In this document: positions 3,962-37,694 of the stretch, one piece after another | How positions within the stretch are numbered: the stretch's first letter is position 1 | How the letters are laid out: each line of letters begins with the position of its first letter | NCBI GenBank assembly: GCA_016188495.1 | Contig: JACPHU010000028.1 | Span: forward strand, 38,325-102,324 | From: Candidatus Uhrbacteria bacterium | GTDB taxonomy: Bacteria > Patescibacteriota > Patescibacteriia > UBA9934 > GWF2-40-263 | Length of the DNA stretch: 64,000 nucleotides | Direction: 5' to 3' | The notes under the pieces: generated by a model | The model's database searches: none | Told to the model about the DNA's origin: nothing | Seen by the model: the letters and a program-made list of their open reading frames with translations, nothing else | Program-made: the position numbers and the translations under genes

Positions 3962-4270
3962 CTAGAACGAGTTGAGCCAGGCGAGGGAGATAATTGTGCT
4001 TACGAAGGCGAGTATGCCGGATAATGTGTTTCCGGCTATGTCCTCCGCACAACCCAGATAGTCTTCTCTTTTGGTCATCCTTACGATCAGGATCCCCAAC
4101 AGAATAGAGGACACAAACGCCACTATCTCGAAGACTTTGAAGACTTCTTTCGGAGACTGGTTGGATGCTACCATCAGAAATGACCAACAGATGTTGACTG
4201 TCCCGATAGCGATCATCATCCAAAAGGCGTAGTCCGTAACGATGCGGACAATGTTTCCAACTTTTTTCAT
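3962..4270 (-). CDS. Hypothetical small membrane protein
   Basis: 102 aa with three hydrophobic helices; convergent with ftsW; no recognisable motif. Confidence 0.35.
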   Translation of the reverse strand: MKKVGNIVRIVTDYAFWMMIAIGTVNICWSFLMVASNQSPKEVFKVFEIVAFVSSILLGILIVRMTKREDYLGCAEDIAGNTLSGILAFVSTIISLAWLNSF

Positions 4271-5666: not shown

Positions 5667-5796
5667 GGAATTCTTTCAAAATTTGATGAGATTGCCTTGA
5701 ACGGGCTGGCAGCCCCAGAAGACGTACCCAAACGTACGTCTTCTGGGGTGCCTGGGTGCCCGTGAAAGGCAAGATCGCAAATTTTGAAAGAATTCC
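5667..5796 (-). repeat. Copy C of a ~130-nt palindromic repeat element family (minus orientation), 7 nt upstream of tRNA-Lys
   Basis: The reverse complement aligns with copies at 25678, 37566 and 7644. Shared cores are CGATCTTGCCTTTCACGGGC and GCCCGTTCAAGGCAATCTCATC. The terminal stem GGAATTCTTTCAAAATTTG/CAAATTTTGAAAGAATTCC covaries with GAGATCTTTGCAAAACTCG/CGAGTTTTGCAAAGATCTC in the other copies. An internal 15-bp hairpin CCCCAGAAGACGTAC/GTACGTCTTCTGGGG occupies the position of the CCCTAT/ATAGGG hairpin in copies A and B. Confidence 0.6.
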
Positions 5797-5803
5797 TCTA
5801 TGA

Positions 5804-5878
5804 GCGCTGGTAGCTCAGGGGTAGAGCAAGAGCCTTTTAAGCTCGTGGTCGCGGGTTCAAATCCCGCCCAGCGCACCA
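5804..5878 (+). tRNA. tRNA-Lys (anticodon TTT)
   Basis: Cloverleaf: acceptor GCGCTGG/CCAGCGC, D-arm GCTC-AGGGGTA-GAGC, anticodon stem AGAGC/GCTCG with loop CTTTTAA, T-arm GCGGG-TTCAAAT-CCCGC, discriminator A and an encoded CCA. Confidence 0.9.
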
Positions 5879-5930: not shown

Positions 5931-8732
5931 ATGAATGAACATCTTTGGCACCACCTTCCTCAGGAAGAGATATTGAACATGCTTCACAGCTCTGAACAAG
6001 GACTCACTTCGTCTGAAGTCCTGCATCAGCAGAACCGATATGGAAAAAATGAGTTTCCAAAAGAACACATAGACGGTTGGATGTCTGTTTTTTTAAGACA
6101 GGTCAAAAGTCCTCTGATCATTATTTTGATGATGGCAGGTGTGATCAGCTTCGTTCTCCAGGAATGGGTGGATGTTTGGGTTATTTTTGCCGCTGTCCTA
6201 CTCAATACCGTCATTGGATTTGTTCAAGAGTATAAAGCGAATAAGGCGTTAGAGAATATTCAGAAGCTTGTTCAACCCCGTTCGTTTGTGTACCGCGATG
6301 GAAGAAGCATCGAAATTTTTGCAGAGGACGTTGTTCCAGGCGATCTCTTGATGTTATCGATGGGTGATCGTGTGACGGCTGATGCTCGATTGCTTGAAGC
6401 GATCGAACTGACGACCAACGAATCAGCTCTGACAGGGGAATCTTTTCCTGTGGGTAAAGAAGTCGGGCTTTGTGAAGCTCAAACCTCGTTGGCTGACAGA
6501 TCGAATATGGTTTACACAGGAACCAGCGTGATTGGCGGACGCGGACGGGCCGTGGTTGTCGCCACAGGCATGCGTACAGAGTTGGGGGTGATTGCCGGGT
6601 TGGTTGAGAGCACTGTCCAAACACAAACGCCGCTTCAGGATCAGTTAACCGTTTTAGCCAGATGGCTGGCGGGTCTTGTTTTGGTTTTGGTGACCGTTCT
6701 TTTTATCATAGGGCTTCTTTCGGGAAGGGTGATCACGGAAATGTTTGAAATGTCTGTTGCTGTTGCTGTTGCGGCAATTCCAGAAGGGCTTGTTGTGTCC
6801 GTGACGATCATTCTCGCGATCGGCATGCAAAGAATTTTGCGTCGTCGCTCGCTGGTTCGTCGTCTTGTTGCTGCGGAGACTCTGGGAAGCGTCTCGGTTA
6901 TTTGTTCAGACAAGACAGGAACTCTGACAGAAGGAGAGATGCGTGTCACCCATTTGATGCATTCTGGTCAGACGAAGATGCTCCCTTTTTCTAGAGACAA
7001 CGAATCGGATGCCATCACGAAAAAAATGTTTGAAGTGATGGCACTGTGTAATGATGCGACGTTTATTGATAGCTCGGAAGGGGAACGTATCAATGGAAGC
7101 GCGACAGAGCGAGCTTTGCTAATGGCAGCTATGGATTCGGGAATAGATCTGACAGCTGTGTTAAAAACAAATCCCCGGACAGGAGAAATTCCATTTAATA
7201 GCAGTTCTAAATTCATGGCGATTGCTTGTACTTCTGTACAAGGCATACAGTTTTTGTTGAAAGGAGCTTCCGGCCCTGTCTTGGATATGTGTACGCAGGT
7301 TCAGATTGCCGGGAACATTGTTGAATTGGATTCTCAGCAAAGGAAACAATTAGAAATTCAGGAAGGGACATTAACCCAACAGGGGATTCGCTTGCTGGCA
7401 CTGGCGTTTAAAATCCCTCTGCCTTCTGAAGGGACATTGTCACGTCAATCTCTTGGCGGTTTTACGTTTTTGGGATTTGTGGGGTTACGGGATCCTTTGC
7501 GAACGCAGGCGCGCGAGCAAATTGCATCGGCTGCGCGTGCCGGAGTACGAACGGTTCTTATCACAGGCGACCATCCACAAACCGCCCGTGCGATTGCCCA
7601 AGAGGCGGGGCTCCTGTCAGATCCTGAATCTCTCCTGGTTGTGAATGACGAAACTCGCGATCTTGCGATTTACAGGCGCCCGTCGACCCCACTCTCCCTA
7701 CGTCTGAGTAGGGTTCGTGGGGATCGACAGCCCGTAAATCGCAATCTCATCGATTTTCCTCATTCACAGCTCTTGGTTGTGGGAAGCGAGTTGGACGCCT
7801 GGAGCGATGAAGAACTTTTTCAAAAAGTTAACTTGATTGGAGTCTATGCCCGTGTTGAACCGCGCCATAAAATTCGTATTGTCAAAGCTTGGCAAGCTCG
7901 TGGAGAGGTCGTGGCCATGGTCGGGGACGGAGTCAATGACGCTCCTGCGTTGAAAACGGCTGATATCGGGGTTGCACTAGGATCTGGAACCGAGGTGGCT
8001 AAGCAAGCATCGGATTTAATCCTTCTGAACAATGATTTGGGAACGATCACGGCAGCCATTGAAGAAGGTCGGGTAATTTTTGATAACATCCGCAAAACAA
8101 GTGTCTATCTACTTGCGGATAGTTTTACGGAGCTGATTCTTATCGGAGGTTCTCTGTTGATGGGATTACCTCTTCCGTTATTGCCCGTGCAAATATTATG
8201 GATCAACCTGATCGCCGATAGTTTTCCCACCATCGGCCTTACGCTTGAGCCTCCGGAAGAAGACGTCATGCGCATCCCCCCGCGTGCCCGTACGGAACCT
8301 GTGTTGAATCGGGAAATGCTTACACTCATTTTTGTCATTGGTGTTATTACGGATCTGGTGTTGTTTGTGCTCTATTTTTGGTTATTAGGTTCCATCGAAA
8401 GCATTACCGAGGTTCGTTCTATTTTGTTTGCGGCTGTTGGTATTGATTCTCTTTTTTACGTGTTTGCCGTAAAGCGGCTGCGTACGAGTATTTTTCGCTC
8501 CAATCCTTTTTCTAACCCATGGCTCTTGTTGGGAGAGGTGATTGCTTTGTCTTTGATGCTGCTGGCACTTCTTCATCCGTTCTTCCAGGTCATTTTTGAA
8601 GTGACTCCTCTTTCCTTGTATGAGTGGATGCTATTGCTTATGATGGGAATGATTAAGCTTCTGGCGATTGAAGTCGTCAAAGAGATTTTTTTAAGAAAAA
8701 AGCCAGTGCATGCTCCTCAAGCAATAAATTAA
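5931..8732 (+). CDS. P-type cation-transporting ATPase (P2A, Ca2+/Mg2+-like)
   Basis: Motifs TGES, DKTGTLT (phosphorylation site), ITGDH and GDGVNDAPALK; 10-TM architecture; 933 aa. It contains an in-frame 46-codon insertion, listed separately. Confidence 0.85.
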   Translation: MNEHLWHHLPQEEILNMLHSSEQGLTSSEVLHQQNRYGKNEFPKEHIDGWMSVFLRQVKSPLIIILMMAGVISFVLQEWVDVWVIFAAVLLNTVIGFVQEYKANKALENIQKLVQPRSFVYRDGRSIEIFAEDVVPGDLLMLSMGDRVTADARLLEAIELTTNESALTGESFPVGKEVGLCEAQTSLADRSNMVYTGTSVIGGRGRAVVVATGMRTELGVIAGLVESTVQTQTPLQDQLTVLARWLAGLVLVLVTVLFIIGLLSGRVITEMFEMSVAVAVAAIPEGLVVSVTIILAIGMQRILRRRSLVRRLVAAETLGSVSVICSDKTGTLTEGEMRVTHLMHSGQTKMLPFSRDNESDAITKKMFEVMALCNDATFIDSSEGERINGSATERALLMAAMDSGIDLTAVLKTNPRTGEIPFNSSSKFMAIACTSVQGIQFLLKGASGPVLDMCTQVQIAGNIVELDSQQRKQLEIQEGTLTQQGIRLLALAFKIPLPSEGTLSRQSLGGFTFLGFVGLRDPLRTQAREQIASAARAGVRTVLITGDHPQTARAIAQEAGLLSDPESLLVVNDETRDLAIYRRPSTPLSLRLSRVRGDRQPVNRNLIDFPHSQLLVVGSELDAWSDEELFQKVNLIGVYARVEPRHKIRIVKAWQARGEVVAMVGDGVNDAPALKTADIGVALGSGTEVAKQASDLILLNNDLGTITAAIEEGRVIFDNIRKTSVYLLADSFTELILIGGSLLMGLPLPLLPVQILWINLIADSFPTIGLTLEPPEEDVMRIPPRARTEPVLNREMLTLIFVIGVITDLVLFVLYFWLLGSIESITEVRSILFAAVGIDSLFYVFAVKRLRTSIFRSNPFSNPWLLLGEVIALSLMLLALLHPFFQVIFEVTPLSLYEWMLLLMMGMIKLLAIEVVKEIFLRKKPVHAPQAIN
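7644..7769 (+). repeat. Copy D of the palindromic repeat element, inserted in-frame within the P-type ATPase CDS
   Basis: AAACTCGCGATCTTGC...CAGCCCGTAAATCGCAATCTCATCGATTTTCC aligns with copies A and B. Covarying internal pairs: GCGATTTAC/GTAAATCGC and CCCTAC/GTAGGG. The element plus a 12-nt direct repeat CTCYTGGTTGTG (7632-7643 and 7770-7781) totals 138 nt, or 46 codons, with no stop. It encodes NDETRDLAIYRRPSTPLSLRLSRVRGDRQPVNRNLIDFPHSQLLVV, placed where homologous ATPases have the contiguous loop LLVVGSELD..SDEEL. Confidence 0.55.
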
Positions 8733-8745
8733 CACCCATTCAACT

Positions 8746-9318
8746 ATGAAACGCCCTGCTGTTTTTCAACAAATTCAAAAAAGTTATCAAACGCACAGTA
8801 AAGCTCGCCGAGAGACAATGGTTCATTCAAATGAGGCGTTGAGTAAATCAAAACGAGCCATCTTCGCTCTTCATCGAAATGATTTTACGCAGGCGCGTCA
8901 GTGCCTGAGTGAGGCTCAAGCCTTATTCAAATCGTGTGAAGCTTCCTTTCGTTCTTTTCCTGAATTAAGAGAGGAGGGAACCTACCGTGCAGGCCTGGAA
9001 GAATATGCAGAAGCCTGTCTTTTCGAGAATTATCTTCAGAAAGGATCTCTGGGAAAAATCGATGCGCGTGCCATGACGCCTTCTATTTATTTTGCGGGCT
9101 TGTGTGATGCCACAGGAGAGATGGTTCGCTATGCCGTGCGCCAGGTTACACTGGGTCACCCAGAGGTTGTCAGCCAAATTCATGAAACCGTGAGCATGGT
9201 GATCGAGTTTCTTTTGGATTTGGATTTGACGGGGTATCTGCGAACAAAATTCGATCAAGCCAAAAAGAACCTCAGTCGATTGGAAGAGATGTCCTATGAT
9301 TTGGCTATTCGTAGATAA
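8746..9318 (+). CDS. Hypothetical protein, possibly translin-like
   Basis: 190 aa, all-helical. YFAGLCDATGEMVRYAV resembles the translin-family D..GE..R motif and EEYAEACLFENYL resembles the EY.EA region. Weak, from-memory similarity only. Confidence 0.3.
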   Translation: MKRPAVFQQIQKSYQTHSKARRETMVHSNEALSKSKRAIFALHRNDFTQARQCLSEAQALFKSCEASFRSFPELREEGTYRAGLEEYAEACLFENYLQKGSLGKIDARAMTPSIYFAGLCDATGEMVRYAVRQVTLGHPEVVSQIHETVSMVIEFLLDLDLTGYLRTKFDQAKKNLSRLEEMSYDLAIRR

Positions 9319-11542: not shown

Positions 11543-11588
11543 AATATTCCCTGAGCGGAGGTTTGTTCGACAAACCGGAGTCGAAGGG
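11543..11588 (+). repeat. R1 intergenic motif, copy I (AATATTCCCTGAGCGGAGG-hairpin-GGAGTCGAAGGG)
   Basis: Shares AATATTCCCTGAGCG and GTCGAAGGG with copies at 15573, 17102, 18878 and 20644. The internal hairpin GGTTTG-TTCGA-CAAACC differs from the other copies but preserves pairing. Confidence 0.5.
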
Positions 11589-15572: not shown

Positions 15573-15670
15573 TTCAACTGGAAGACTGATTCGATCGGTC
15601 TCCTGAGAAGTCAAAACCTCGAATATTCCCTGAGCGAGGAGTTCTCGACGAGTCGAAGGGGAAATATTCG
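15573..15670 (+). repeat. R1 intergenic element, copy II (extended form)
   Basis: TTCAACTGGAAGACTGA...TCTCCTGAGAAG...GAATATTCCCTGAGCGAGGAG...GTCGAAGGGGAAATATTCG aligns over ~100 nt with copy III. It lies 45 nt upstream of the 15718 ATG. Confidence 0.55.
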
Positions 15671-15717
15671 TCAATGTTCTTTAAAACAATCCGTGAAAGC
15701 GGAAGAAGGAGAAAGAA

Positions 15718-17101: not shown

Positions 17102-17208
17102 TTCAATTGGAAGACTGAGAAAATCTCGGTTTCCTGAGAAGGTTAAATATCCGAATATTCCCTGAGCGGAGGCTCGTCAGACGAGCCGAAGTCGAAGGGG
17201 AGATATTC
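17102..17208 (+). repeat. R1 intergenic element, copy III (extended form)
   Basis: TTCAATTGGAAGACTGAGA...TTTCCTGAGAAG...GAATATTCCCTGAGCGGAGG-GCTCGTC-AGA-GACGAGC-CGAAGTCGAAGGGGAGATATTC. An AGGAGG RBS lies 9 nt upstream of the 17245 ATG. Confidence 0.55.
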
Positions 17209-17244
17209 ACCAACGTTCCTCAAATAATCAGGAGGTTCTCCGTG

Positions 17245-18726: not shown

Positions 18727-18877
18727 ACACTCCCCTCACACGAGGGGTTCACAACACGAGGAGGATCGCGCATACGCACGCGCGATCCTCTCCTCAATTT
18801 CCTCCGTCACAATAGGGTGATGTGGGATGAGAGGAAAGCAAAAAGAAAAACAACCTCAAAGTGAGATTGTTTCCACG

Positions 18878-18915
18878 CATATTCCCTGAGCGAGGAGTTC
18901 TCGACGAGTCGAAGG
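18878..18915 (+). repeat. R1 intergenic motif, copy IV
   Basis: CATATTCCCTGAGCGAGGAGTTCTCGACGAGTCGAAGGG is identical over 34 nt to the core of copy II. It sits between two convergent genes. Confidence 0.5.
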
Positions 18916-18928
18916 GTTGCATCTAGGA

Positions 18929-19486
18929 TTATGCACGCGGAAAGGGCTCCATGTTCATAATATGTTGCGCTGATTCCACAGGAAGCACTTTATATTTCAC
19001 GAGTTCCTCAACCAAGACGTTGAGTTTACGATCTTCTTTACGCATCAGAACAGTGAAGTCCCCGCGAAGATCACCAAGCTTTTCATCCAAATAGTCTTTT
19101 GTGACCATGTTTGTTTTCAGATAAGAAACGTCTGTTTCAACTCCAGAAAGTCTATTCTCAACTCCAGAAAGACGATTTTCTATCCCCGTAAAACGTTCTT
19201 CTGTATGTTGGGCGAAGGTGTTAATGGTCGATAAAATGTCGTCATTTTGTTGAGCGAGCTTGTCAGTCTCAAGAACGAGCTTATCGGTCTTAAGAACAAG
19301 TTGTTCGTTCTGTTGAGCCAGCTTATCGGTCTTAAGAACAAGTTGTTCGTTCTGTTGAGCGATTTTATCGGTCTTAAGAACAAGTTGTTCGTTCTGTTGA
19401 GCGATTTTATTGATTGCTAAAAGAATATCATTTTGAGTTGGTTCGTTCATACATTTTGGATTATAACACACAGACGCATTCCTCAT
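18929..19486 (-). CDS. Coiled-coil protein with tandem 14-aa repeats
   Basis: 185 aa. Contains AQQNEQLVLKTDK(L/I) repeated three times plus degenerate copies; lower G+C than neighbouring genes. Confidence 0.45.
   Translation of the reverse strand: MRNASVCYNPKCMNEPTQNDILLAINKIAQQNEQLVLKTDKIAQQNEQLVLKTDKLAQQNEQLVLKTDKLVLETDKLAQQNDDILSTINTFAQHTEERFTGIENRLSGVENRLSGVETDVSYLKTNMVTKDYLDEKLGDLRGDFTVLMRKEDRKLNVLVEELVKYKVLPVESAQHIMNMEPFPRA
19241..19406. repeat. Tandem 42-nt direct repeats (about 3.5 copies) inside the 18929..19486 CDS
   Basis: The unit TTATCGGTCTTAAGAACAAGTTGTTCGTTCTGTTGAGC(GATT/CAGC) recurs at 19281, 19323 and 19365, with a degenerate copy upstream. The repeats are in-frame and encode the 14-aa repeat. 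Confidence 0.6.
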
Positions 19487-21705: not shown

Positions 21706-21791
21706 CTCAGCTCTTGTTACGTACATCTGTATGTAGCAAGGGCTTATTCTCTCAGGATCGCAGGTTCCTCGCCTGTGGTGCTGAGAGGATA
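21706..21791 (+). repeat. R2 intergenic repeat, copy a
   Basis: CTCAGCTCTT...AGGGCTTATTCTCTCAGGATCGCAGGTTCCTCGCCTGTGGTGCTGAGAGGATA. The 3' ~50 nt are near-identical to the copy at 22566. The 5' hairpin CTTGTTAC/GTAGCAAG covaries with CTTCTGT/ACAGAAG in copy b. Confidence 0.55.
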
Positions 21792-22565: not shown

Positions 22566-22652
22566 CTCAGCTCTTCTGTCGTATGTACGGTATACAGAAG
22601 GGCTTATTCTCTCAGGATCGCAGGTTCTCTCGCCTGTGGTGCTGAGAGGATA
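22566..22652 (+). repeat. R2 intergenic repeat, copy b
   Basis: See copy a; it follows the 22105..22560 stop and precedes the 22726 gene. Confidence 0.55.
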
Positions 22653-23805: not shown

Positions 23806-25677
23806 ATGCAACGTCTCTCTATAAAAATGACAACTTCTTTTTTGCGCACGGTTCTTCTTGCCGTTGTGGCTTTTTTGTTTTTCTTTTTTGTTTTTGCCGC
23901 ACATCCCGCACTGGCTCAACAGACAGCCTTTGAAAAATTTGGCGAGGCTTCCACGCTTCCAACCGATGATATCGCGATCATCGTTGCGCGAGTTATTCGG
24001 GCTATTTTTGGAGTTGTTGGGATTATTTTTACCGGATTAGTGATTTATGCGGGATTTCTTTATTTTCTTGCGCGCGGGGAACCAGAACCTGTCAAAAAAT
24101 CCAAAAAAATTCTTCAACAGTCCATCATCGGGTTGATTCTGATGTTTTCGTCCTACAGTATCGCAACCTATATTTTAAACCGTCTTCTTGAAGCGGCCTT
24201 CACCAGCAGTGTGTCCTCGACTGCAGAAGCTTACAGTGAACCGTTATCCGGCGCGTTGGGCGGTGGCATTATCGACGATCACTATCCAGAACGTAATGCA
24301 ACAGATATCCCTCGCAATACAAGAATTTTTGTCAGTTTTAAAGAAGCGATCGACCCTGCCAGTCTTATAGAAGGGTATGAGTCTAATCCTGATTCGACCG
24401 CGTTGAATACTGATAGCGTGCTTATTTATCCAACCGATGATGGATCCGGAAGCGCGTTGCTTTCCGATCAGGTGGTGGTGACGTTTGACGAAGAACAGAA
24501 AGTGTTCGTGTTCGATCCTGTCGGTTACTTGGGAAGTGCGGATAAAGACATCAATTACACAGTGACACTTACCACAGAAATCCAAAAAGCGGACGGAAGC
24601 GATGCTTTTACAGGAGCGTATTCGAGCGGTTATGAATGGACCTTTGAAGTTTCAACCGAAATCGATCTCACGCCTCCCTATATTACGTCCGTGGTTCCAA
24701 AACAGGATGCAAAAGAACCTCGAAATGTCACGATCGAAATAAATTTCAGCGAAGCGATGGATCCGGTGGCAAGCACTGGTTCTTATCTTGTCAGTCAGGA
24801 TCCTCTTTTTACCAATATTCAAGTTCTGGATGAAAGCGGAAAGAATGTTGAAGGAGCATTTGAAATAAGCAACGGATATCGCACTGTCAGTTTTACCACG
24901 ATCGACGCCTGCGGAGAGGATCCTTGCGGGGATACCATTTACTGTCTCCCAACCAATCAGTTGATTACATCTTTTGCCAAAGCGGCCACCTTGAATGATG
25001 CGGAAGTTCCGCAGGCAAAATCCAGCGGAGTCACATTTGACGGGTTGGTGGATTCCGCAGCCAATTCGCTTGACGGAGATCATGACGGGGATGCCTGCGG
25101 ATCTGAATTGGATACGGTCAGCTGTAAGGACGAGGAAGCAAACGACAACTATCAGTGGACGTTTACTACGACCGATGAAATCAATGACATTGTTCCTCAA
25201 GTCGTTTCTGTAAATCCTGGAATAGAAGAAGATGAAATCAGCCAGACCAATGACGTAGAAGTGAGATTTAATACGTTTCTCAAGTCTTCTACCGTAAAAA
25301 CCGACAGTGTTTCACTTTGGCCGGATCCTTATTATGAATTTTGGTTCGCTGTTAGGAAGGATAATACCGATACGGAAACAGTCGTACATCTTGAACATCC
25401 GACGTTGGTGAGCACGGATGAAGGAGGATGGGATTACTGGCCGGTACTGACTCACGAGATAAAGAGTACGTATCAGATCTGTATGTATCCTGCGATCGGC
25501 CCGAATTCTTGTCTGGATCCGGATACAGGTCGTAGGTCAGCCAATGCTCCTTATTGCTGCAACGGGGTTCCTTCCGCTTCACAGTGTCAGACGGATACAC
25601 AGGACGAAGTGGATGGAACACTCTATCCGGTACCGAACGATTACGTTTTGCCTAATAATACAGAAACTGAATTGTAA
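23806..25677 (+). CDS. Secreted/cell-surface protein with Ig-like (bacterial Ig/SbsA-type) domains and a TrbC/VirB2-pilin-like N-terminal module
   Basis: Signal peptide ending AHPALAQ. A conserved ~110-aa module with two hydrophobic helices is shared with the N-terminus of the next gene. Repeated beta-rich segments such as TPPYITSVVPKQDAKEPRNVTIEINFSEAMDPVASTGSYLV are typical of bacterial Ig-like domains. Confidence 0.55.
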   Translation: MQRLSIKMTTSFLRTVLLAVVAFLFFFFVFAAHPALAQQTAFEKFGEASTLPTDDIAIIVARVIRAIFGVVGIIFTGLVIYAGFLYFLARGEPEPVKKSKKILQQSIIGLILMFSSYSIATYILNRLLEAAFTSSVSSTAEAYSEPLSGALGGGIIDDHYPERNATDIPRNTRIFVSFKEAIDPASLIEGYESNPDSTALNTDSVLIYPTDDGSGSALLSDQVVVTFDEEQKVFVFDPVGYLGSADKDINYTVTLTTEIQKADGSDAFTGAYSSGYEWTFEVSTEIDLTPPYITSVVPKQDAKEPRNVTIEINFSEAMDPVASTGSYLVSQDPLFTNIQVLDESGKNVEGAFEISNGYRTVSFTTIDACGEDPCGDTIYCLPTNQLITSFAKAATLNDAEVPQAKSSGVTFDGLVDSAANSLDGDHDGDACGSELDTVSCKDEEANDNYQWTFTTTDEINDIVPQVVSVNPGIEEDEISQTNDVEVRFNTFLKSSTVKTDSVSLWPDPYYEFWFAVRKDNTDTETVVHLEHPTLVSTDEGGWDYWPVLTHEIKSTYQICMYPAIGPNSCLDPDTGRRSANAPYCCNGVPSASQCQTDTQDEVDGTLYPVPNDYVLPNNTETEL

Positions 25678-25807
25678 GAGATCTTTGCAAAACTCGCGAT
25701 CTTGCCCTTCACGGGCGCCCGTTGACCACACTCTCCCTATGAGGAATAGGCTTCGTGCGGCAGGGCAGCCCGTTCAAGACAATCTCATCGAGTTTTGTAA
25801 AGATCTC
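25678..25807 (+). repeat. Copy A of the palindromic repeat element, filling the spacer between the 23806 gene stop and the giant-gene start
   Basis: GAGATCTTTGCAAAACTCG...CGATCTTGCCCTTCACGGGCGCCCG...CCCTATGAGGAATAGG...GCAGCCCGTTCAAGACAATCTCATCGAGTTTTGTAAAGATCTC. The terminal 19-bp stem has one G-U wobble (GCAAAAC vs GTTTTGT), allowed only in plus-strand RNA. The copy has no stop in one frame. Confidence 0.6.
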
Positions 25808-25816
25808 ATAAACCAC

Positions 25817-28800
25817 ATGCATATCAGACGTTTTTCTCTCATTGCGGGTTTTTTCTTGGCACTGTGCCTCAGTGTCGGAATTTTTGTTGCCCCTCCCGTC
25901 TTTGCGCAGGAAGTGGATTTGGAAAGTTTTGCCCAAACCGCTGGGTTTTCTACCGATGCGGACATTACGGTCATTATCGCCAGGCTTATTCGCACCGCCA
26001 TCACGCTGGTTGGGGTCGTGACGGTTGTTTTTATCGTGTACGGAGGATTTGTCTTAACAACCGCTGGCGGAAATCCGGAACGTGTCAAAACAGCAAAGAA
26101 AATTATTACCAATGCGGTTTTAGGCCTTGTTTTAGTCTTCGCTTCTTTTGCGATCGTCCAATTTATTTTGAATGCTCTTGTTTCAGCCACAACAGCAACG
26201 ACAGAGACTTCCTCTGACAGTTCCTCTTCTTCTTATTCTGATGGCGGAGAAAGTTCTGTCTTTTATCTTTACTCCGTTAATACACAGTGCGCGGAGGCTC
26301 TGCAAAATTTTGAGCTCCAATTTGTTTTTTCTAAAAAGGTTGATCCCGATACTGTTTCAAACGGTATTACTGTGATACAGGGAACAGCAGAAACTGGAGG
26401 ACCGGTCGTGAGCGGAACATTCTCTACTTCAGGAAGCACTGTGACGTTTGTTCCTTCTCAGTTGTGCGATTCTCCTTATGAGACCGAACATTGTTTTGAT
26501 CCCAATACCGATTATTTGATAGGCATAGATTCTTATTACATTAAATCCACCTCTTCCCAGTCTTTGACGTGTACTACCAGCTATCCTTGTTCTTTTTCTT
26601 TCACCACAGGCGATCAAATAGATGTGGATGATCCATCCGTAACGATGGATGCTCCAGAGGACGGAGAGAGTTTTTACGCAGGTTCCATAGAACTTTTACA
26701 AGCTCTAACGACAGACGATAGCGGAGTTTCCAAAGTTGATTTTTATGTGATTGACGATGAGGAAGCGATCTATTCTTCCGGAGTTAATTTTTCTACCGCC
26801 GGAGCCCTCTTAGGAGAGAATCAGGAAAATGCTTTTTTTACAGATACAACGCAGGAGTGGGCTACGCAAGGTTATACAACAAATCAAGAGTATGATATTT
26901 GGGCAAAGGGATCTGATTGTGCCGGAAATACTGATACCGCTTCGCACATAAGCATTGTGTTGCGCGCGGCAAACTGCAATAACGGCGTCCTGGATTCCGA
27001 TTTGGGCGAGACAGATGTGGATTGCGGAGGCGAAACATCAAGTGCTTATTATTGCGGGGCCTGTGAAGGAGATGAGTGTACAGAGAATGCAGATTGTTCC
27101 ACCGGACAATGCCAAGACGGGCAGTGCATCGTCACTCCTAAAATAGAAAGCGTGTCTCCAGGGGATGGCGCCCCAAATAATTTGATGACGATTTCCGGGG
27201 AAGGTTTTGGGGAGGTAGCCGGAACCATCACTTTTTTGGGTACGGAAAGCGGAGATGAAGTACAGGTCAGTGCGTATTCTTGTAATAGCGTTGTCCAGTG
27301 GTCCGATGACGAGATCATCGTTCAGTTGCCTGTGGGGGCCGTTGACGGACCTCTCTTGGTTACCACTGCCGATGTTGAACCTGAATTCGACCGAACGGAT
27401 GACGATTATGGACCTTCTATTGCAGATGTTGATGTCAACGCGATTGTTCGGCCCGGCATCTGTCTTTTAGATCCTAAGACGGATGTTGCCGGAAGTTCGG
27501 TTGATGTTTATGGAAACGGTTTCGGAGATGCTCAAGGTTCATCCATGTTTTATTTCAGCAGTTACAAAACGAGCTCCTATCTTTCTTGGGAAAATACGCT
27601 GTTGGGCGTTGCTGTCCCGACGATCAATTCTGGAAAATATTCTACGCAAGTATTTACGGGCGACTATACATGTATTGATACGTCCGGAGTTTCCACAGGC
27701 ATTGTCTGTTTAGAAGACAGTGATTGCCACACAGACGAAGGGGAGACCTGCGCCACCTCTTGGTGTTCTGAAACGTTGGAGTACTGTACGGACGATGATT
27801 CCTGCGCAGACACGGATGGAACTTGCGAATCAGTTCGTGTGGGATCCAATAAAGTCTCTTTTACCGTTAAAGATACCTCGACGGAAACCGTACCTATTAT
27901 TTCTTCTGTCGATTCCGGATGGATGGCCTGTTCTGGAGGCTCTAATGATGGAGGACAATGTGGAGAAGATACCGATTGTCCTGATGGAGGCACCTGTGAA
28001 GATGCTTCGAACTGGGGTCCTCCGGGCCAATACGTCACTATTTACGGAACGAATTTTGGTACCTCTACAGGTTCTGTGTATTGGTATAACGAAGACTTAG
28101 GTTATCTGGCGCTGGGGGATACGGATTTTCCAGATGCCTGCGGAGATGATTTTTGGCACGATACGTCTATTACCGTGAAGGTTCCTGAAACCTATTTAAC
28201 CGAACAACAAGATGCCATTAAACCCCTCACGCACGCTCTTTTTGTTGAACGTTCTGACGGGGCAAAGTCCGAGACTCAGGATTTTGTGGTATTAGACGAT
28301 CAACCAGGTCCGTCGATTTGTGAGATCAACCCATCTTCTGGTCCGGTTGGCACAAAACTGACGTTGTACGGGGATCATTTTGGCACAGGCGAAGGATCTG
28401 TGATGTTCTATTCCGAAAAAACAGCTTCTTACGGTTTGTGGGAAAACGATGAAATTTCTTCCGTGTATGTCCCTTCCGATTCTGAAACGGGACCTGTGTA
28501 TGTCAAAGAAGAGAGTCATGGGTACACATCCAACTCTGTTAATTTTAGCGTGGGAGATTGCCGTGAAGAGAGTGATCTGTGCGAAGAGGGCGAATCTTGC
28601 TGTTCCAATGGAGCCTGTTCGACCAGTTGTGAAACGCAAAACGCGGTTGCTGCCCACTATGCCTTTAAAATAACCACAGGCATCACTCCCAATACTCCGC
28701 ACGTGGTGATTGAGTGTACCGAAAACGGCGTTTCGCCTTCTCCATGGGAAGGATGGAGCGATCCGGAAGATATCTGCGTGACCGCTTCTGTTCAGGCTGA

Positions 28801-31800
28801 ATTTGATCGGACCATGAATCAAAGCACGGTGAATACATCTACAGTGGTTGTAGAAAAATGTATAGAAGTATACACAGCAACAGACGAGAGTTCAGGATTG
28901 GGAGAAGAGGGGGAATGTAAAACTTGGGAAGCATTGGTTCCTTCCGATTTTGATACCGATGAAACCGGTTTTTCGTGGGACCCGCCTTCCGGAGGATTTG
29001 CCACGAGCACTCTTCATCGGGTGACTTTGAAAGGAGTCAATCAGATTCAGGCGGACGAAAGCGAAGGAGGAGGATATCTTGAACAAGATTACCAATGGGA
29101 ATTTACCACCAGTTCTTCCGGAGCTTTGTGCGAAGTGGGTGAGGTGAACGTTCGCCCGGATGAATACACGCAAACAGAACAAGAGGACGTGAATTATTCT
29201 GCCCAACTTATTGCTCAAAATGACCGTTGCGTGGCCATGAGCTGTTCCGGTTATGCCTTACATTGGCAGTCAGATTTTGACGGAGCCCTTATTGCCGTTG
29301 CAGAACCTGGCGAAGGAGTCTGCGAAAATGACGTCTCAGCTGTTGACGAGACGCCAGCAAATGATCCTGCCCTTATTACGACAACTGTGACAAACGCTGC
29401 CAGCAAGCCTTCCGGTACAGGCGCCTTGACGATTAATTTTATTGATCCGCAGATCAACGATTATTTCCCGCAGTGTTCGACCGCTTGCGTGAACGCCTTG
29501 CCGTGGGCAGAATTTAATACGGTGATGTCAGCATCCACGATCAATGAGAACAGCGTCAAACTTTATTCTTGTCTCAATTCTTTGTGCGAGCCTTCTCAAA
29601 TAACGCAAGTTTCTTTTATTGATTCAATTAGCGTTAACGAGGCAGCCGATCGTTTCTCTATCCATTTTAAAGATACTGAAACCATGACAGCGAATACGTG
29701 GTATCGCATCGTTGTGGATGGGGACGCGATTACTTCCCAAACAGGCGTTCCTCTTTCAGAGTCCGGTTCAAATGAAGGTTCGGACGATAACCGTTATTTC
29801 CCAAATGACTTTTCTTGGATTTTTAAAACCAAAGACGATGCGGTGAGCTGTAAGGTGGATACGGTTTCTTTAGATCCAGACCTTGCCGACATGAACTACG
29901 TCGGAGAGCGTCAGGAGTTTGAAGCTACGCCAAAAGGGGAGCCTGATGACTGTTCCGAGCAAGGGCAAACGCTCCAGTCCGGATCTTATGTATGGGAAGC
30001 ATGGAGCGCAAAAGATGATCCAAATACCGTAGGAGCCAGTTCAGGAGGCGAGAATGAGCAGGATGAACTTGTTGCTTACATGATCCAAGATGGAGCCATT
30101 GAGCTCACCTCAGAACTCCCTGCGTACTGTACGGCCAGCTGTCTGAATGCGGGAGCTCCTGTGACCAGTGCACAGGGCGTGTGTGGCAATGGAGTTGTTG
30201 AAAGCTCTGAAGAGTGCGATGACGGAGTTACGACCGCCGGCGACGGATGCTCTTCGTTCTGTTTGGACGAGGGTTCGACCAGTTACGGATCTGTTTGTGG
30301 CGATAAGGTTAGAAATTATTTTGCTGACGAAGGAGGGGAAGACTGCGATGACGGCAATACAACCAATGGCGACGGATGTTCTGCCGAATGTCTGGATGAG
30401 GGGGCTCGAGCCATTAGTTCTGTTTGCGGTGATGGGACCAGAGACTGGGCTGAGAATACCGGAGGAGAAGACTGTGATGATGGAAATAAAATAAGCGGAG
30501 ACGGCTGTTCTCAAAATTGTTTGAAGGAGGGCTCTCTTTCTGAAGAAAATGTATATGCTGTTTGCGGAGACGGAACCGTGAGCGATGGAGAAGATTGCGA
30601 GGATGGGAATACAGTCAGCGCAGATGGCTGTTCTTCTGCCTGTTTAAATGAAGGAACCAAAGCATGTCCCACGTCCGCCTCTACAGGAAATTGCTGCGGA
30701 AATGGAATCAGGGGAACAGGTGAAGAATGCGATGGGGAAGAAGGATGTTCCAGCGCCTGTTTGTGGGCAGGTTCTTCTTATCTTTATGAAGCCGCTTCCT
30801 TTTGTGGAGATGGAGACAAAGAAACAGGTGAGGAATGCGATGCGCAAACGTCCTCAAGCTTCAAGACTGGAGATTACGGCGTCGCTCAAGTAGCAAGCGG
30901 TGCTCCTTTGGAAGTGAATAGCGAAACTCACTATGCGTTATCTACTGTTTCTGTCACGGTTGATAGCGATGTCAGCGGCGAAGCGACGTTACAGTTAGAA
31001 TGTTCTTGTACGACCGACGAGTCTTGCGGCGAGACAGGTTTGGGATGCGGCGCAAGCAATTGCTGTTATGAACGTCCTGCTATTGTTGATGGACAGGTCT
31101 ATCCTGCCGATAATACAGCCAGTTTTAGTGCTGGCGACGACGAAGGGTACTGCCGCAATTCCGCTATCTGGATTGAGTTTACTCAAGTCATGGATGAAGC
31201 GACCTTTGACCTGACGGAAGATTCCGATGGAGACGGAATGATCGATCAAGAGGAATTTAAAGGTAATCTTTATTTGGACTTGGTTTCTGTTGATACCAAT
31301 GAAGATGGCATACAAGAAACGGTTGACGAACAGAAAGAGTGTCCTCAAGGATATGAAGGAGCGGCCGCTTCTGCTCAGGGAACGGTTTTACGCGTTTGGA
31401 ATTGGTTGAAGGATCTCGTTTTGGGATGGTTTGGACGCGATGCTGAGGCGTCTTCCGTTTTTGCTTGTCATGTTCCTATTCATTATGAGATGTATCAAAA
31501 TTCTGATGAAACTTTCCATGTTTATTTAAGATACGGATCTTTGCTTGAAAAAAATGCGATCTATCGGTTAGTCGTTGTTGGCGATAACCAAGCGGACGAT
31601 TCTGAGAAGACGGGGGTATTGAGCCAACAGCAGGTCACCGTATGCTTAGGAGATGATTGCGAAAATGCGAGTTTCGAACAGTCGTTTGCTATCGGAGACG
31701 ATATCTGTGATTTGGACCGCGTGTTGGTTGAAGATCAGGGTAATGTTGATGCTACGGAGTATGAATCAGCCAGTATTGGATTTTTTAGTTCTACCAACGA

Positions 31801-34800
31801 AGAGCACGCCTTTATTGCCACACCGCAGACGTATCATGCAGGAAGCGGCTATCAAGAAATTTCTCCGTTAGCCGATTTGTATGAATGGACGTGGGCTTGG
31901 GGTTCTTCCAAGACTGACGAAACAGAATCAGATATCGTGGCGATTACCGAAGGGGATGCAGCAGATGATACAACGACCCATTATTCCGCTTCCGGCGCCA
32001 CAGGATACGAAACTGTCTTAACTTCGGCGGAAATTACGGTTGATGAACTTTTTACTCCCACTACCCAATCAACGATCGTGACAGGAACACAGGAAGTGTC
32101 CGCTTTGGTGTGCGAGAATCCTTGGCCAGCATTGGATTCTGCTTCAGGATTTCCTTATGTAGAAGATCTTATTCCAACCAATTTTTCTTTCTATTATTGT
32201 CGTGATGCCGGAGATTTTGGAACAGATGACGACCTTCCTGCGCTCGGAGACCCGATCGACGTCAGTTCCCTTTCCTCTTCAGGGATTATTCAGGAATTGA
32301 TTTTTAAGATAGAGGATTCAAGCGATGCTATCGGTGTACGCGTGGTATCCAATGACACCTATCTTTCGCCTTCCTCGTGGGTAGAAGCGCAAGGATTTAC
32401 CGGCTCATTTTCACAAACCCAGTTAGACGGGTATGAGGCGGTTGAGTCTGGCACCACGGTGTATACCTCCGCGGCCAACCAAAGCTTAGGATCGGTTTAT
32501 CCGAATGTCTATGTTGTGTCTTATAACCAAGACGCAGGGGAAGAAGCACAGCAGATTTTTGATCAAATTTTGGAAAACTGGAGATTTAATGCCAATACGG
32601 ATGAAGTGACGGATATCAATCTGTGTTCAGTGGATGGGGATTATGTAACCGATGAAGAAGGAAATTTTCTTACCTGTAGCTGGAATGGGGATTGTTTGGA
32701 GACCTGTCAGGACAACGTTTGTTCTGTTTCTGGAGATACGTGTGAGGCAGATGCGGATTGTCCTCTGGCATTAAATACAAGCACTCCTGTGGTGTGTGAT
32801 GCACAAAAAGCTAAACTCACACGCGACACCAAGCGTCTTACCGATATCACGGACATTCAGTCCACGCTTGAAACCTTTGGAGAAAATAACAGGCATTGTT
32901 CTGTGACAAAAGGGCAGAGTTGCGAAGAAGACGCAGATTGTCCTGGAACGGAAGAGTGTGTCGCGGGATTTCCTGCCGTTCAATCAGGAACGTTTGTTCC
33001 GGCGCTTTCCAATTCTCTTTGGGGATCTTGGAATGCTTCTTTGGCCAATGAACTAGGAACAACGCTTCCGACAGATCCTGTTAACGCGTTTTACGATTGT
33101 TCAGAAGAGGGATTTGACTCAGCTTCTTGTTGGAACGGAGAAAGCGGAATGTTCATATGTCCGGAGGATTCTCATGTGTACGGCTATCAGAGCATTGGAG
33201 GAGAGTCCTATATGTTGTATGCGCAGCTTGAGACTTCGGGCAATGTGGCTTGGGCCTATGATATAGACACCGATACCTCGGATGAAGCTGGGATTGTGGT
33301 TGAATATCCAACCGGGTACGCTCCAACGAGCACCCCTTTGGAGGATGGGTTTGAATCCACTCCCCAATTTTGCGATGCAGGAACATGGGGAGACTCAGCT
33401 TTGTGCGGTGATGGAACGCAAGGAGCAACAGAAACATGTGAAATAGGAGATACGAAATCGATTGCTTGTACGGACGATGTGACAAGTGAATTGGGAACGA
33501 TCACCTCCGCTTGTCTAACGGATTGTTCTCAATACCAAACAGAGGTTCAGGCCGAGACTGCGGGCGCTGACTGTATTGCCTATGAATGCGGAAACGGCGT
33601 TGTGGAGGATTTAGAATCCTGTGATGACGGTTCGTTAAACGGAACTTACGGTCATTGCAGCGATACCTGTACGTTTACAGGTGCATTTTATTGCGGAGAC
33701 GGTTATTTGGCGGATTCTGAGCAGTGCGACTGTGCTACAACCACCAACTATAGCAGTGTAATCACCGATACAAGCAGTTGGGCCTACGGCAACAGCTGTG
33801 TGGTTTCCAACGGCCAATACGCTTCCAATATCGATGTGAGTTGTGCGTACAACTGCACGGAACCAGGACCTTCTTGTGGAGACAAGGTCGTAAATGGTGG
33901 CGAGGCCTGCGATGGGGATTATGAAGAATGGAGTGGAGCTCTTTGTGCAGACGCAACGACTTGTTCAACTGATAGTGATTGCGAGACGGGGTCTTGCGGC
34001 GATGGAAACGTTTCTTGCGGAGTCGGAGATATCTGTACCGATTTCACGGACGTGGGAGAAACTTGTACCTCGGACAGTCAATGCGATTCACGTGAATGTT
34101 TAGCAGGAGTTTGTACAAGCGCGACGGATGCCGGATCTGTGTGCGTCGTTACAACGTCAGATCCAACCGGCGGTTGCGAATCTGGCTTGTGCGGAGATTT
34201 TAATTACACTCTTTTCCGTTATCGAACCTGCAGCAGTACGTGCGGTTGGAACAGTTGGTCGGAATGCGTAGGCGGAACACAAATTTGCGGAAACGGCACG
34301 CTGGAAGGTAATGAAGCGTGCGATGACGGAAACACTTCAAACAATGACGCTTGTTTAAATACCTGTCAGGTAAACGTCTGCGGAGATGACGCAGTGTACG
34401 TGGGTGTTGAGTCGTGTGATAACGGTTCTTCCAACGGAACGACGTGCGAGGCCTCTTATGACGGCACGTGTAACTACTGTAATTCAACCTGCCAATATAA
34501 AACTCAGTCAGGAGGATATTGCGGAGATGGAGTGCTCAATGGCACAGAGGTCTGTGACGGAGGGTATTCTACACAATTAAAATATTTTGACGTTGAAAAC
34601 CAGAAAACAACCGGGGCTTGTACAACTCATGGTGCGACAACCACAGACGCAAGCGATACGTATACGTGTCGGTGGTTAGGTGTGTGCGATGGGGGTTCAG
34701 AAAATGGAGATTTTTGCACGCTTGATGTAACGACTTACAATTCAAGCGGGATCGTGCAACCGCTTTCAAGTGGTACGGATACCAACACATGTACAGATGG

Positions 34801-36907: not shown

Positions 36908-37567
36908 ATGTTTGATGATATTCATCCCGAACCTGAGGATATGTTCGATGAGACCGACAAGGTAGCTCCTCAATTGAATCCGCCCACGGCTCCTTCAATA
37001 GGTGTTTCTTCACAGGGTTCTGCCTCTGGGGTTGCAAATCCTCCATCATCTTCTGACGGGTCTCTTTCAATGGGGGAATTGAGCGAACCTAAAAAAACAG
37101 GTCCATGGAAAGCCGTTCTTCTTATTGTGGGCATTGTAGTGGTTGTAGCAGGCGCCCTGTTTCTTTCCATGAAAATTTTAAGTTCCAAAACAGATGTTGT
37201 TCCAGAACCTCCCGTCGTTACTGACATTCAAACTCAGCCTCCCGTATCAGACACAGCTCCTACCCAAGAACAGCCCGATCAGCAAGAACCGGTCATCACA
37301 AAGGAACCTGAAAAAACGTCTTCGCGTGTAGATACCGACAAGGATGGACTTACTGATGAAGAAGAAACGGAATTAGGTACAAGCTCGAAGACGGCAGATA
37401 CGGACAGTGACGGATTGTTTGACTTTGAGGAAGTCAAGACATGGGGAACAGATCCCGTTAATCCTGATACGGATGCAGACGGATATCTGGATGGGGCAGA
37501 AGTGAAAGCGGGTTATAATCCAAATGGGCAAGGGTCATTACGTGAAGCGCCTTCAGAATCTTCCTAG
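36908..37567 (+). CDS. Membrane-anchored paralog with a TSP3-like Asp-rich C-terminal module
   Basis: TM helix AVLLIVGIVVVVAGALFLSM, a Pro/Gln-rich linker, then DTDKDGLTDEEE...DTDSDGLFDFEEVKTWGTDPVNPDTDADGYLDGAEVKAGYNPNGQGSL, paralogous to the C-terminus of 36050..36877. Confidence 0.5.
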   Translation: MFDDIHPEPEDMFDETDKVAPQLNPPTAPSIGVSSQGSASGVANPPSSSDGSLSMGELSEPKKTGPWKAVLLIVGIVVVVAGALFLSMKILSSKTDVVPEPPVVTDIQTQPPVSDTAPTQEQPDQQEPVITKEPEKTSSRVDTDKDGLTDEEETELGTSSKTADTDSDGLFDFEEVKTWGTDPVNPDTDADGYLDGAEVKAGYNPNGQGSLREAPSESS

Positions 37568-37694
37568 ATCTTTGCAAAACTCGCGATCTTGCCTTTCACG
37601 GGCGCCCACCCTCCACACTTTCCCTATTGTGAATAGGGTTCGTGCGGCAGGGCAGCCCGTTCAAGGCAATCTCATCGAGTTTTGCAAAGATCTC
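37566..37694 (+). repeat. Copy B of the palindromic repeat element, overlapping the stop codon of the upstream gene
   Basis: AGATCTTTGCAAAACTCG...CGAGTTTTGCAAAGATCT is a perfect 18-bp terminal stem. The internal hairpin CCCTATT-GTG-AATAGGG covaries with CCCTAT-GAGGA-ATAGG in copy A. Confidence 0.6.

Follow-up and report, generated by a model that had tools for sequence, protein, structure and literature searches.

Here we describe a palindromic repeat element that lies in frame inside a cation pump gene of Candidatus Uhrbacteria, in a 64,000-nucleotide (nt) stretch of contig JACPHU010000028.1 (GenBank assembly GCA_016188495.1), referred to below as the window. The host gene (window positions 5931 to 8732, plus strand) is one uninterrupted open reading frame (ORF) of 933 amino acids and encodes a P-type cation ATPase of the P2 group, similar to SPCA and LMCA1. 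All of its catalytic motifs are intact, and its closest solved structures are human SPCA1 and Listeria LMCA1, both matched at an E-value of about 1e-150. The alignment with these two proteins has a sole break, at residues 564-616 of the query, a span that corresponds to about four residues in those chains. The protein is deposited at NCBI as MBI2473898.1, a HAD-IC family P-type ATPase from Candidatus Uhrbacteria, where it is annotated as intact on a 106-kb contig.

The material added to this gene amounts to 138 nt, or 46 codons with no stop among them, as the initial annotation of the sequence had stated. The extra codons occupy positions 7644 to 7781 (residues 572-617, plus strand) and encode the peptide NDETRDLAIYRRPSTPLSLRLSRVRGDRQPVNRNLIDFPHSQLLVV. 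Most of the added DNA is a 131-nt palindromic element, designated copy A (7639 to 7769, plus strand), which begins T-TGTGAATGACGAAACTCGCGATCTTGC, ends GCAATCTCATCGATTTTCCTCATTCACA-G and can fold over its whole length into a hairpin. It is bracketed by a 7-nt target-site duplication on the plus strand, CTCCTGG on the left (7632 to 7638) and CTCTTGG on the right (7770 to 7776). The single mismatch between the two duplication copies is synonymous, exchanging the Leu codons CTG and TTG.

The position of the element boundary required comparison with other copies. In the initial annotation the insert was described as a 126-nt element with a 12-nt duplication, and indeed CTCCTGGTTGTG (7632-7643) and CTCTTGGTTGTG (7770-7781) bracket 126 nt. 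With up to one mismatch allowed, the window contains this flanking 12-mer four times where 0.56 would be expected, and its two perfect matches are those at 7632-7643 and 7770-7781. The duplication itself is thus genuine; its length is 7 nt rather than 12, and the element is correspondingly 131 nt. The boundary was set from the copies of the same subtype, here called A-type, at loci L134, L135 and L084. These three carry a TTGTG or CTTG terminus without having it in their flanks, and TTGTG at 7639-7643 is therefore the end of the element. The flanking repeat appears to be 12 nt long because the native target sequence TTGTG (7777 to 7781, plus strand) happens to match the first 5 nt of the element; in the empty site of a relative the corresponding letters are TTGTC. 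The termini of copy A, TGTGAATGA and TCATTCACA, pair with each other in a whole-element hairpin of 52 pairs. Comparable ends are seen at L134 (T-TGTGAATTACGAAAC...GTTTCGTAATTCACA-G) and at L135 and L136 (T-CTTGCATGACGAAAC...GTTTCGTCATGCAAG-G), and those of a nested intergenic copy at L084 are similar. The other A-type copies also have 7-nt duplications, CATAAGG/CATAGGG at L134 and TCTTTTC at L135, with the L084 duplication ambiguous at 7-9 nt.

The 46 residues are missing from all 120 of the 120 best homologues in an alignment drawn from a collection of 5.8 billion proteins. The closest homologue, P0001, is 82% identical over aligned positions and lies at the syntenic locus of a relative (L001), where the gene order mraY-ftsW-murG-ATPase-translin-like-hypothetical-murD is shared. 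The insert is the sole internal gap between the two proteins. At the DNA level L001 is about 80% identical to the window, and the alignment runs to 7642 and restarts at 7774. The empty site reads GAATCCAACGTGGTTGTCGGAAGC, exactly 138 nt shorter than the window sequence, and a second sample of the same species (L137) is likewise empty, with a single copy of the duplication. A junction without the insert would read ...DPESLLVVGSELD... in protein and ...TCTCTCYTGGTTGTGGGAAGC... in DNA. The only cluster mate of the ATPase is a C-terminal fragment from the L001-like species, also with an empty site, and the protein collection contained no closer relative by which the insertion could be dated. The empty site lacks any hairpin arms, which rules out, for copy A, that the variable termini of the element are the arms of a hairpin already present at the target.

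Repeats are a common cause of broken assemblies, and misassembly or misbinning could in principle have joined a repeat copy into the gene. A contig of the Logan collection (L004, run SRR12113419, recorded in two samples) encodes the same 933-residue protein and matches the window with 100% identity across 4.9 kb, insert included. This contig ends inside the tRNA-Lys gene, about 26 nt downstream of another copy of the repeat (copy D, below), and an assembly break beside a repeat is what an artefact would lead one to expect. The identity of the Logan contig together with the intact NCBI record argues against an assembly artefact, and the exact 7-nt duplication and preserved frame are signatures of integration and not of a misjoin. 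We regard a misjoined repeat as extremely improbable.

Among its six frames copy A has a single one free of stops, and this is the frame used by the ATPase; the other five all contain stops. The open frame of copy A spans 43 amino acids and has no match to a protein family. As RNA, copy A is predicted to fold into a single long hairpin (dG -74.9 kcal/mol, z = -9.05, with none of 200 shuffles as good), and with DNA parameters the fold has dG -39.5 kcal/mol and z = -9.5. Such a structure, with GTT GTG at 7638-7643 repeated at 7776-7781, has the identical take-off and landing codons around a very stable hairpin that would suit ribosome bypass, and the insert might instead be left untranslated in this manner or be excised from the mRNA. 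This arrangement of codons arises automatically from a target-site duplication. Programmed bypass, as in T4 gene 60 and the yeast mitochondrial byps, spans gaps of about 50 nt or less. Here the matched codons are present, but no stop codon follows the take-off site and the gap is 138 nt. There is also no match to an intron or ribozyme family. A frame that is stop-free only in register with the gene and a length that is a multiple of three are both unnecessary for bypass, and together they favour read-through about 10-fold. We therefore consider it highly improbable that the insert is skipped or excised.

Using AlphaFold2 with 73 homologues, we obtained a model of the ATPase with a mean pLDDT (predicted local distance difference test) of 85 and a pTM (predicted template-modelling score) of 0.81, and the top Foldseek matches of this model are LMCA1, SPCA1 and SERCA. 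Residues 568-610 are predicted as coil with pLDDT below 50, and the remaining fold is confident. The low-confidence coil is flanked by a helix at 549-559, which follows the TGD motif, and by a strand at 614-617. This strand, formed by the second LLVV of the protein, is the native β-strand. The insert thus lies after the TGD motif and its helix and before the GDGVNDAP motif. Both TGD and GDGxND are assigned to the P domain in the accepted domain anatomy of P-type ATPases. Because the insert lies between these two motifs, it sits in a surface loop of the P domain and not in the N domain, where the initial annotation had placed it. The length of this loop varies among homologues, and in one of them, P0107, it contains a natural insertion of 14 amino acids.

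The ATPase is not the only protein to contain this peptide. When 1.84 billion representative proteins were searched by HMMER for the 50-residue segment from the window, two were found with the peptide in the same frame of the element, P0124 and P0125. P0124 (L135, 2547-4706) belongs to the Wzy_C/O-antigen-ligase family, and P0125 (L134, 2772-3410) is weakly pilin-like; both have the element-derived segment near the N-terminus. All three inserts are 138 nt and use the same element frame, and the P0124 and P0125 peptides are 61-66% identical to that of the window. For P0124, the segment is missing in ten homologues and in a tandem paralogue, whose N-terminal tails equal that of P0124 minus the insert, and the insert is predicted to lie within this tail of P0124, ahead of the first transmembrane helix. 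For P0125, the sole evidence is that no start codon occurs in the stretch from the element to the transmembrane helix, which makes in-frame insertion probable. Both look like genuine in-frame insertions. The L084 intergenic A-type copy makes a unit of 139 nt, which rules out a 138-nt unit as an inherent property of the subtype; frame compatibility in the three genes thus comes from selection. Two further in-frame copies of one subtype in unrelated genes agree with the initial suggestion of behaviour like that of the Rickettsia palindromic element (RPE), as an analogy of behaviour.

Genic copies make up about three of the roughly 55 known, a share to be read with the bias that these three were found partly through a protein search, which detects genic copies only. 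The roughly 50 other copies examined are intergenic, and they often lie in a 5' leader or immediately 3' of a stop codon. Further copies that appeared to lie within ORFs (L079, L054, L107, L115, L117, L118, L121, L122 and P0121) were rejected as antisense or spurious ORFs or as N-terminal over-extensions. The L115 copy, for example, is upstream of smpB, and the called start of P0121 (L133, 476-1273) is over-extended through an upstream element. A concatenated six-frame peptide query for more genic copies returned only P0121, which is not a true insertion.

Within the window, an nhmmer profile detected exactly four copies of the family (A-D) in the 64 kb, and the three besides copy A lie where the initial annotation had listed them. 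The insert in the ATPase gene is homologous in DNA to the intergenic copies of this and other genomes. Copy D (5667 to 5795, minus strand) is located between murG and the tRNA-Lys(UUU) gene (5804-5878), ending 9 nt upstream of the tRNA. Copy B (25679 to 25807, plus strand) directly follows the stop of the ORF at 23806-25677 and is upstream of a giant ORF. Copy C (37566 to 37694, plus strand) is 90% identical to copy B and overlaps the TAG stop (37565-37567) of the ORF at 36908-37567, a stop that the element may have provided or replaced. Copies B and C are mutual closest relatives in direct orientation, both with AGATCTTTGC ends, and they bracket an 11.9-kb block containing the giant ORF (25544-36046, about 3500 amino acids) and two smaller ORFs. 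This block might have arisen by local duplication or might form a composite unit. Copy B and the copy in L001 each begin immediately after a TAA stop codon.

A pattern scan of species-representative genomes, filtered with nhmmer, placed copies of the family in at least 15 assemblies, one of them a weak match. Among the matches listed, 10 assemblies are named Candidatus Uhrbacteria; the others listed are metagenome-assembled genomes of the Patescibacteria group, an unclassified "bacterium", the weak match in Kaiserbacteria and a contig binned as Lentisphaerae. Numbers in the assembly names suggest that the G+C content of the genomes bearing the family spans about 39 to 59%. A scan of metagenomes added 14 further loci. 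The Lentisphaerae contig (L006, MHBF01000116.1, from Lentisphaerae bacterium GWF2_44_16) has a copy whose sequence and flanks match L120, from a JGI metagenome that also contains the Uhrbacteria relative, and it is probably a mis-binned Uhrbacteria contig. Two copies at L065 (2558-2718 and 5934-6095, Uhrbacteria GW2011_GWF2_39_13) have an extra 33-nt G+C-rich hairpin, CCCGCCCGAACGAACG.TCGACGGTCGGGCGGG, in the right arm. BLAST searches of phage and plasmid collections found nothing of the family, and five pattern matches in viral contigs were chance hits with no nhmmer match; an origin from a phage or plasmid was therefore set aside.

An alignment of 39 copies (A3) indicates how the element is built. 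The subterminal blocks AAAACTCGCGATCTTGC and GCAATCTCATCGAGTTTT are both conserved; they are not paired with each other and make up an asymmetric internal loop. Their conservation was partly imposed by the search pattern, and copies recovered by other routes still keep CGATCT and ATCTCATC. The central stem-loop is variable, and the outer 11 nt or so are highly divergent between copies while complementary within each; end sequences in the family include T-TGTGAAT... and GAGACCTCTGC... Covariation is strong: 93.4% of cells are paired, 33 of the 40 pairs have changed on both sides, and there are 263 compensatory cells against 70 in shuffles, with slid controls 33-42% paired. G-T cells (35) are not commoner than A-C cells (41). 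Wobble pairs are thus not favoured on one strand, and this points to a palindrome preserved in DNA and not to an RNA structure read from a single strand. The palindrome thus appears to be kept up in DNA, with the asymmetric subterminal boxes (CGATCT and ATCTCATC) conserved and the termini free-running yet complementary.

The same structure and the location of most copies, just after stop codons or in 5' leaders, would also be expected if the family served primarily as a functional structured RNA or a regulatory hairpin, for example to terminate transcription or stabilise mRNA, with the ATPase copy an accidental product of recombination. The balance of G-T and A-C cells is instead what a DNA-level palindrome predicts, and flanking duplications and empty sites indicate insertion. 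Copy A has no terminator-like T-run or site 3' of its hairpin, and no Rfam family was matched. The latter search gave no match at the gathering score and only chance microRNA-like matches (E of 0.03 or above), which also led us to reject an RNA family, intron or ribozyme as the identity of the element. An intein or a group I or II intron was rejected on size as well, 46 amino acids or 138 nt being too small. A primarily regulatory family is very unlikely, and the intergenic copies may still serve secondarily as RNA.

Several observations show that the family is mobile. Presence and absence of copies differ at three sites between the window and L001: L001 lacks copies A and D, and it has its own copy directly 3' of the ftsW stop, where the window has none. 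One subtype is nested inside another at L084 (3988-4252), where a reversed copy of the GAGACC-ended type (4049-4177), flanked by a CCTA duplication, splits the central loop of an A-type copy. Flanking direct repeats of at least 3 nt are found at 45% of copies compared with 8% of mismatched-flank controls, and those of at least 4 nt at 25% compared with 3.5%. In the common GAGACC-ended type the duplications are typically 4-5 nt (GTCT, AACA, TAAAC, GAAGT, GGTA, TAGG and AAAC), and the duplications CATG, TATG and ACTAT were read by eye from the flank alignment, as the automatic boundary took in part of the repeat.

[quoted passage not shown] At 131 nt the element is well under about 400 bp and has no transposase gene; it has terminal inverted repeats, a duplication checked against an empty site, and dispersed copies that differ in presence and absence. 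A DDE transposase IS beside the orthologous locus in L001 was considered as the mobilising partner and rejected, as its terminal repeats are unrelated. REP/REPIN sequences, which are mobilised by RAYT and consist of 20-40 nt hairpins with GTAG/CGTC tags and no duplication, were also excluded: the present element is a single 131-nt unit with duplications and without end tags.

Taken together, we consider the insert to be probably a non-autonomous MITE with RPE-like behaviour, now translated as a tolerated disordered loop in the pump. A 131-nt element of a Candidatus Uhrbacteria family would have integrated in the ATPase gene, with a staggered cut duplicating 7 nt. The single stop-free frame of the element would have coincided with that of the gene, and the ORF would have remained open because element plus duplication make 138 nt and the frames match. 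The 46 extra residues would then have landed in the surface loop of the P domain, between the helix after the TGD motif and the next β-strand. Once transcribed, the insert would most likely be translated into a disordered loop rich in Arg and Leu and tolerated by the pump, which presumably retains its activity. Movement of the family may be mediated by a transposase.

Several points weigh against parts of this interpretation. The duplication differs in length between subtypes, being 4-5 nt in the common type and 7 nt in the A-type. The DNA examined yielded no autonomous element whose ends match, and termini that are hypervariable between copies are unusual for recognition by a DDE transposase. 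The pattern of boxes and termini hints at a mechanism of mobilisation or maintenance unlike ordinary transposase recognition of terminal repeats. As to the protein, an intact ORF is weak proof of function, because about one in six combinations of frame and orientation stays open. Among the peptides that the three in-frame copies encode, 15-16 of 43 positions differ, and the substitutions, about 13, 5 and 8 by codon position, are not focused on third positions; the peptides thus show no coding constraint. A hairpin of about -75 kcal/mol in the mRNA could attract RNase III or slow ribosomes. The dN/dS ratio (nonsynonymous to synonymous substitution rates) against the closest orthologue is 0.11 overall, with dS about 1.05, which speaks for selection on the gene; this value spans the whole divergence from that relative and not just the time since insertion.

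The openness of one in six random genic insertions of this subtype, the unconstrained peptide and a hairpin strong enough to block expression are also what one would see if the insertion were real and the ATPase inactivated or crippled, as a young pseudogene or poorly expressed gene kept open by luck of frame and by youth. We find this unlikely but treat it as a serious alternative. No other lesion was seen in the 2.8 kb of the gene, in which the catalytic motifs all persist. The two copies of the duplication have already diverged by one synonymous substitution, so some time has elapsed without decay. The site itself is a predicted disordered surface loop of variable length among homologues, and two other genes have similar inserts where little harm would be expected, one in an N-terminal tail and one in a leader. 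A tolerated, translated loop therefore remains the interpretation that we favour.

In-frame insertion of small palindromic repeats is known for Rickettsia RPE, Bordetella BRE, pneumococcal repeats, enterobacterial ERIC and YPAL, and Coxiella QMITE2 (PMC2229807, PMC3184786, PMC5896051, PMC10969869). RPE (Ogata et al. 2000; reviewed in PMC2229807 and PMC10969869) offers a close parallel in behaviour. RPEs are 105-150 bp palindromes that form a single long hairpin and are found both between genes and in frame in conserved protein genes (PMC2229807, PMC10969869). One frame encodes a related peptide, the inserts occur where the fold tolerates them, and the hosts have small genomes and a symbiotic or parasitic lifestyle, all of which resembles the situation here. 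We likewise find recurrent in-frame insertion in unrelated genes and, by prediction, an undisturbed fold at the insert. The host phyla are unrelated, and the likeness drawn here is one of behaviour. Nearly half of the copies of some families in Rickettsia conorii are in ORFs, whereas only the three genic cases above are known for Uhrbacteria. The Uhrbacteria element has a clear 7-nt target duplication, a feature listed as unknown for RPE (PMC2229807). Translation has been shown experimentally in Rickettsia, where the RPE-bearing guanylate kinase gene (gmk) is translated and its product is active (PMC2229807); for Uhrbacteria we infer it.

Other systems share individual features. Coxiella burnetii QMITE2, a MITE of 150-190 bp, has direct repeats of 7-11 nt whose sequence varies; it lies mostly at the 3' ends of genes and occasionally forms in-frame insertions or C-terminal extensions (PMC5896051). 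It differs in its host, has no known sequence relation to the present family and yields a small RNA (PMC5896051), and unlike QMITE2 the Uhrbacteria element is a near-perfect palindrome over its whole length. ERIC (also IRU) and YPAL are imperfect palindromes of about 127-168 bp, mostly intergenic and co-transcribed, with occasional intragenic in-frame fusions (PMC2229807, PMC10969869), and effects of ERIC on RNase E and mRNA stability have been demonstrated (PMC2229807, PMC10969869). YPAL has variable target duplications of 3-26 bp, parallel to the two duplication lengths in Uhrbacteria; ERIC in contrast has TA termini and duplicates TA, and the hosts of both are Gammaproteobacteria. The betaproteobacterial repeat element (BRE) and the pneumococcal BOX, RUP and SPRITE repeats are small repeats inside about nine protein genes (BRE) or fused to gene ends (PMC3184786), and they differ in architecture and host, the comparison being by description only. 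Full-text literature searches, within the library covered, turned up no account of elements of this kind from Patescibacteria or Uhrbacteria, in keeping with the initial annotation, which knew of none in this lineage.

Some further features of the window are recorded here. The gene downstream of the ATPase (8746-9318) has an orthologue in L001 that matches the Pfam family Translin (PF01997), a family uncommon in bacteria. A second palindromic family, of about 45-70 nt (AATATTCCCTGAGCG...GTCGAAGGGGAAATATT), has four copies within 8 kb (11543-11588, 15617-15685, 17154-17224 and 18873-18916), and Rfam gave no match to it at the gathering score. A 21-nt repeat forms a tandem array at 19231-19410, detected as six 75-nt copies that overlap with a spacing of 21 nt. 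In addition, 30 nt are repeated exactly in direct orientation at 21738-21767 and 22598-22627, the two copies being 860 nt apart.

Small hairpin transposons that enter genes without destroying them are a known but uncommon route by which selfish DNA enlarges proteins. Rickettsia is the textbook case of hairpin elements within genes. The bacteria of the Candidate Phyla Radiation have genomes of about 1 Mb and are uncultured, and the same behaviour among them, in groundwater Candidatus Uhrbacteria, indicates that it is not peculiar to one lineage. We propose only tentatively that Uhrbacteria, and perhaps other Patescibacteria, host a counterpart of RPE in which the A-type subfamily repeatedly colonises genes and adds a related peptide. 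For annotation, the inserts matter in that they lengthen proteins and extend called N-termini, as in P0121, P0124 and P0125. The family is also a compact marker for strain typing and for recognising mis-binned contigs such as the "Lentisphaerae" contig. Finally, boxes that are conserved beside ends that vary widely yet stay complementary make an unusual pattern, one that could help to identify the enzyme behind the movement of the family.

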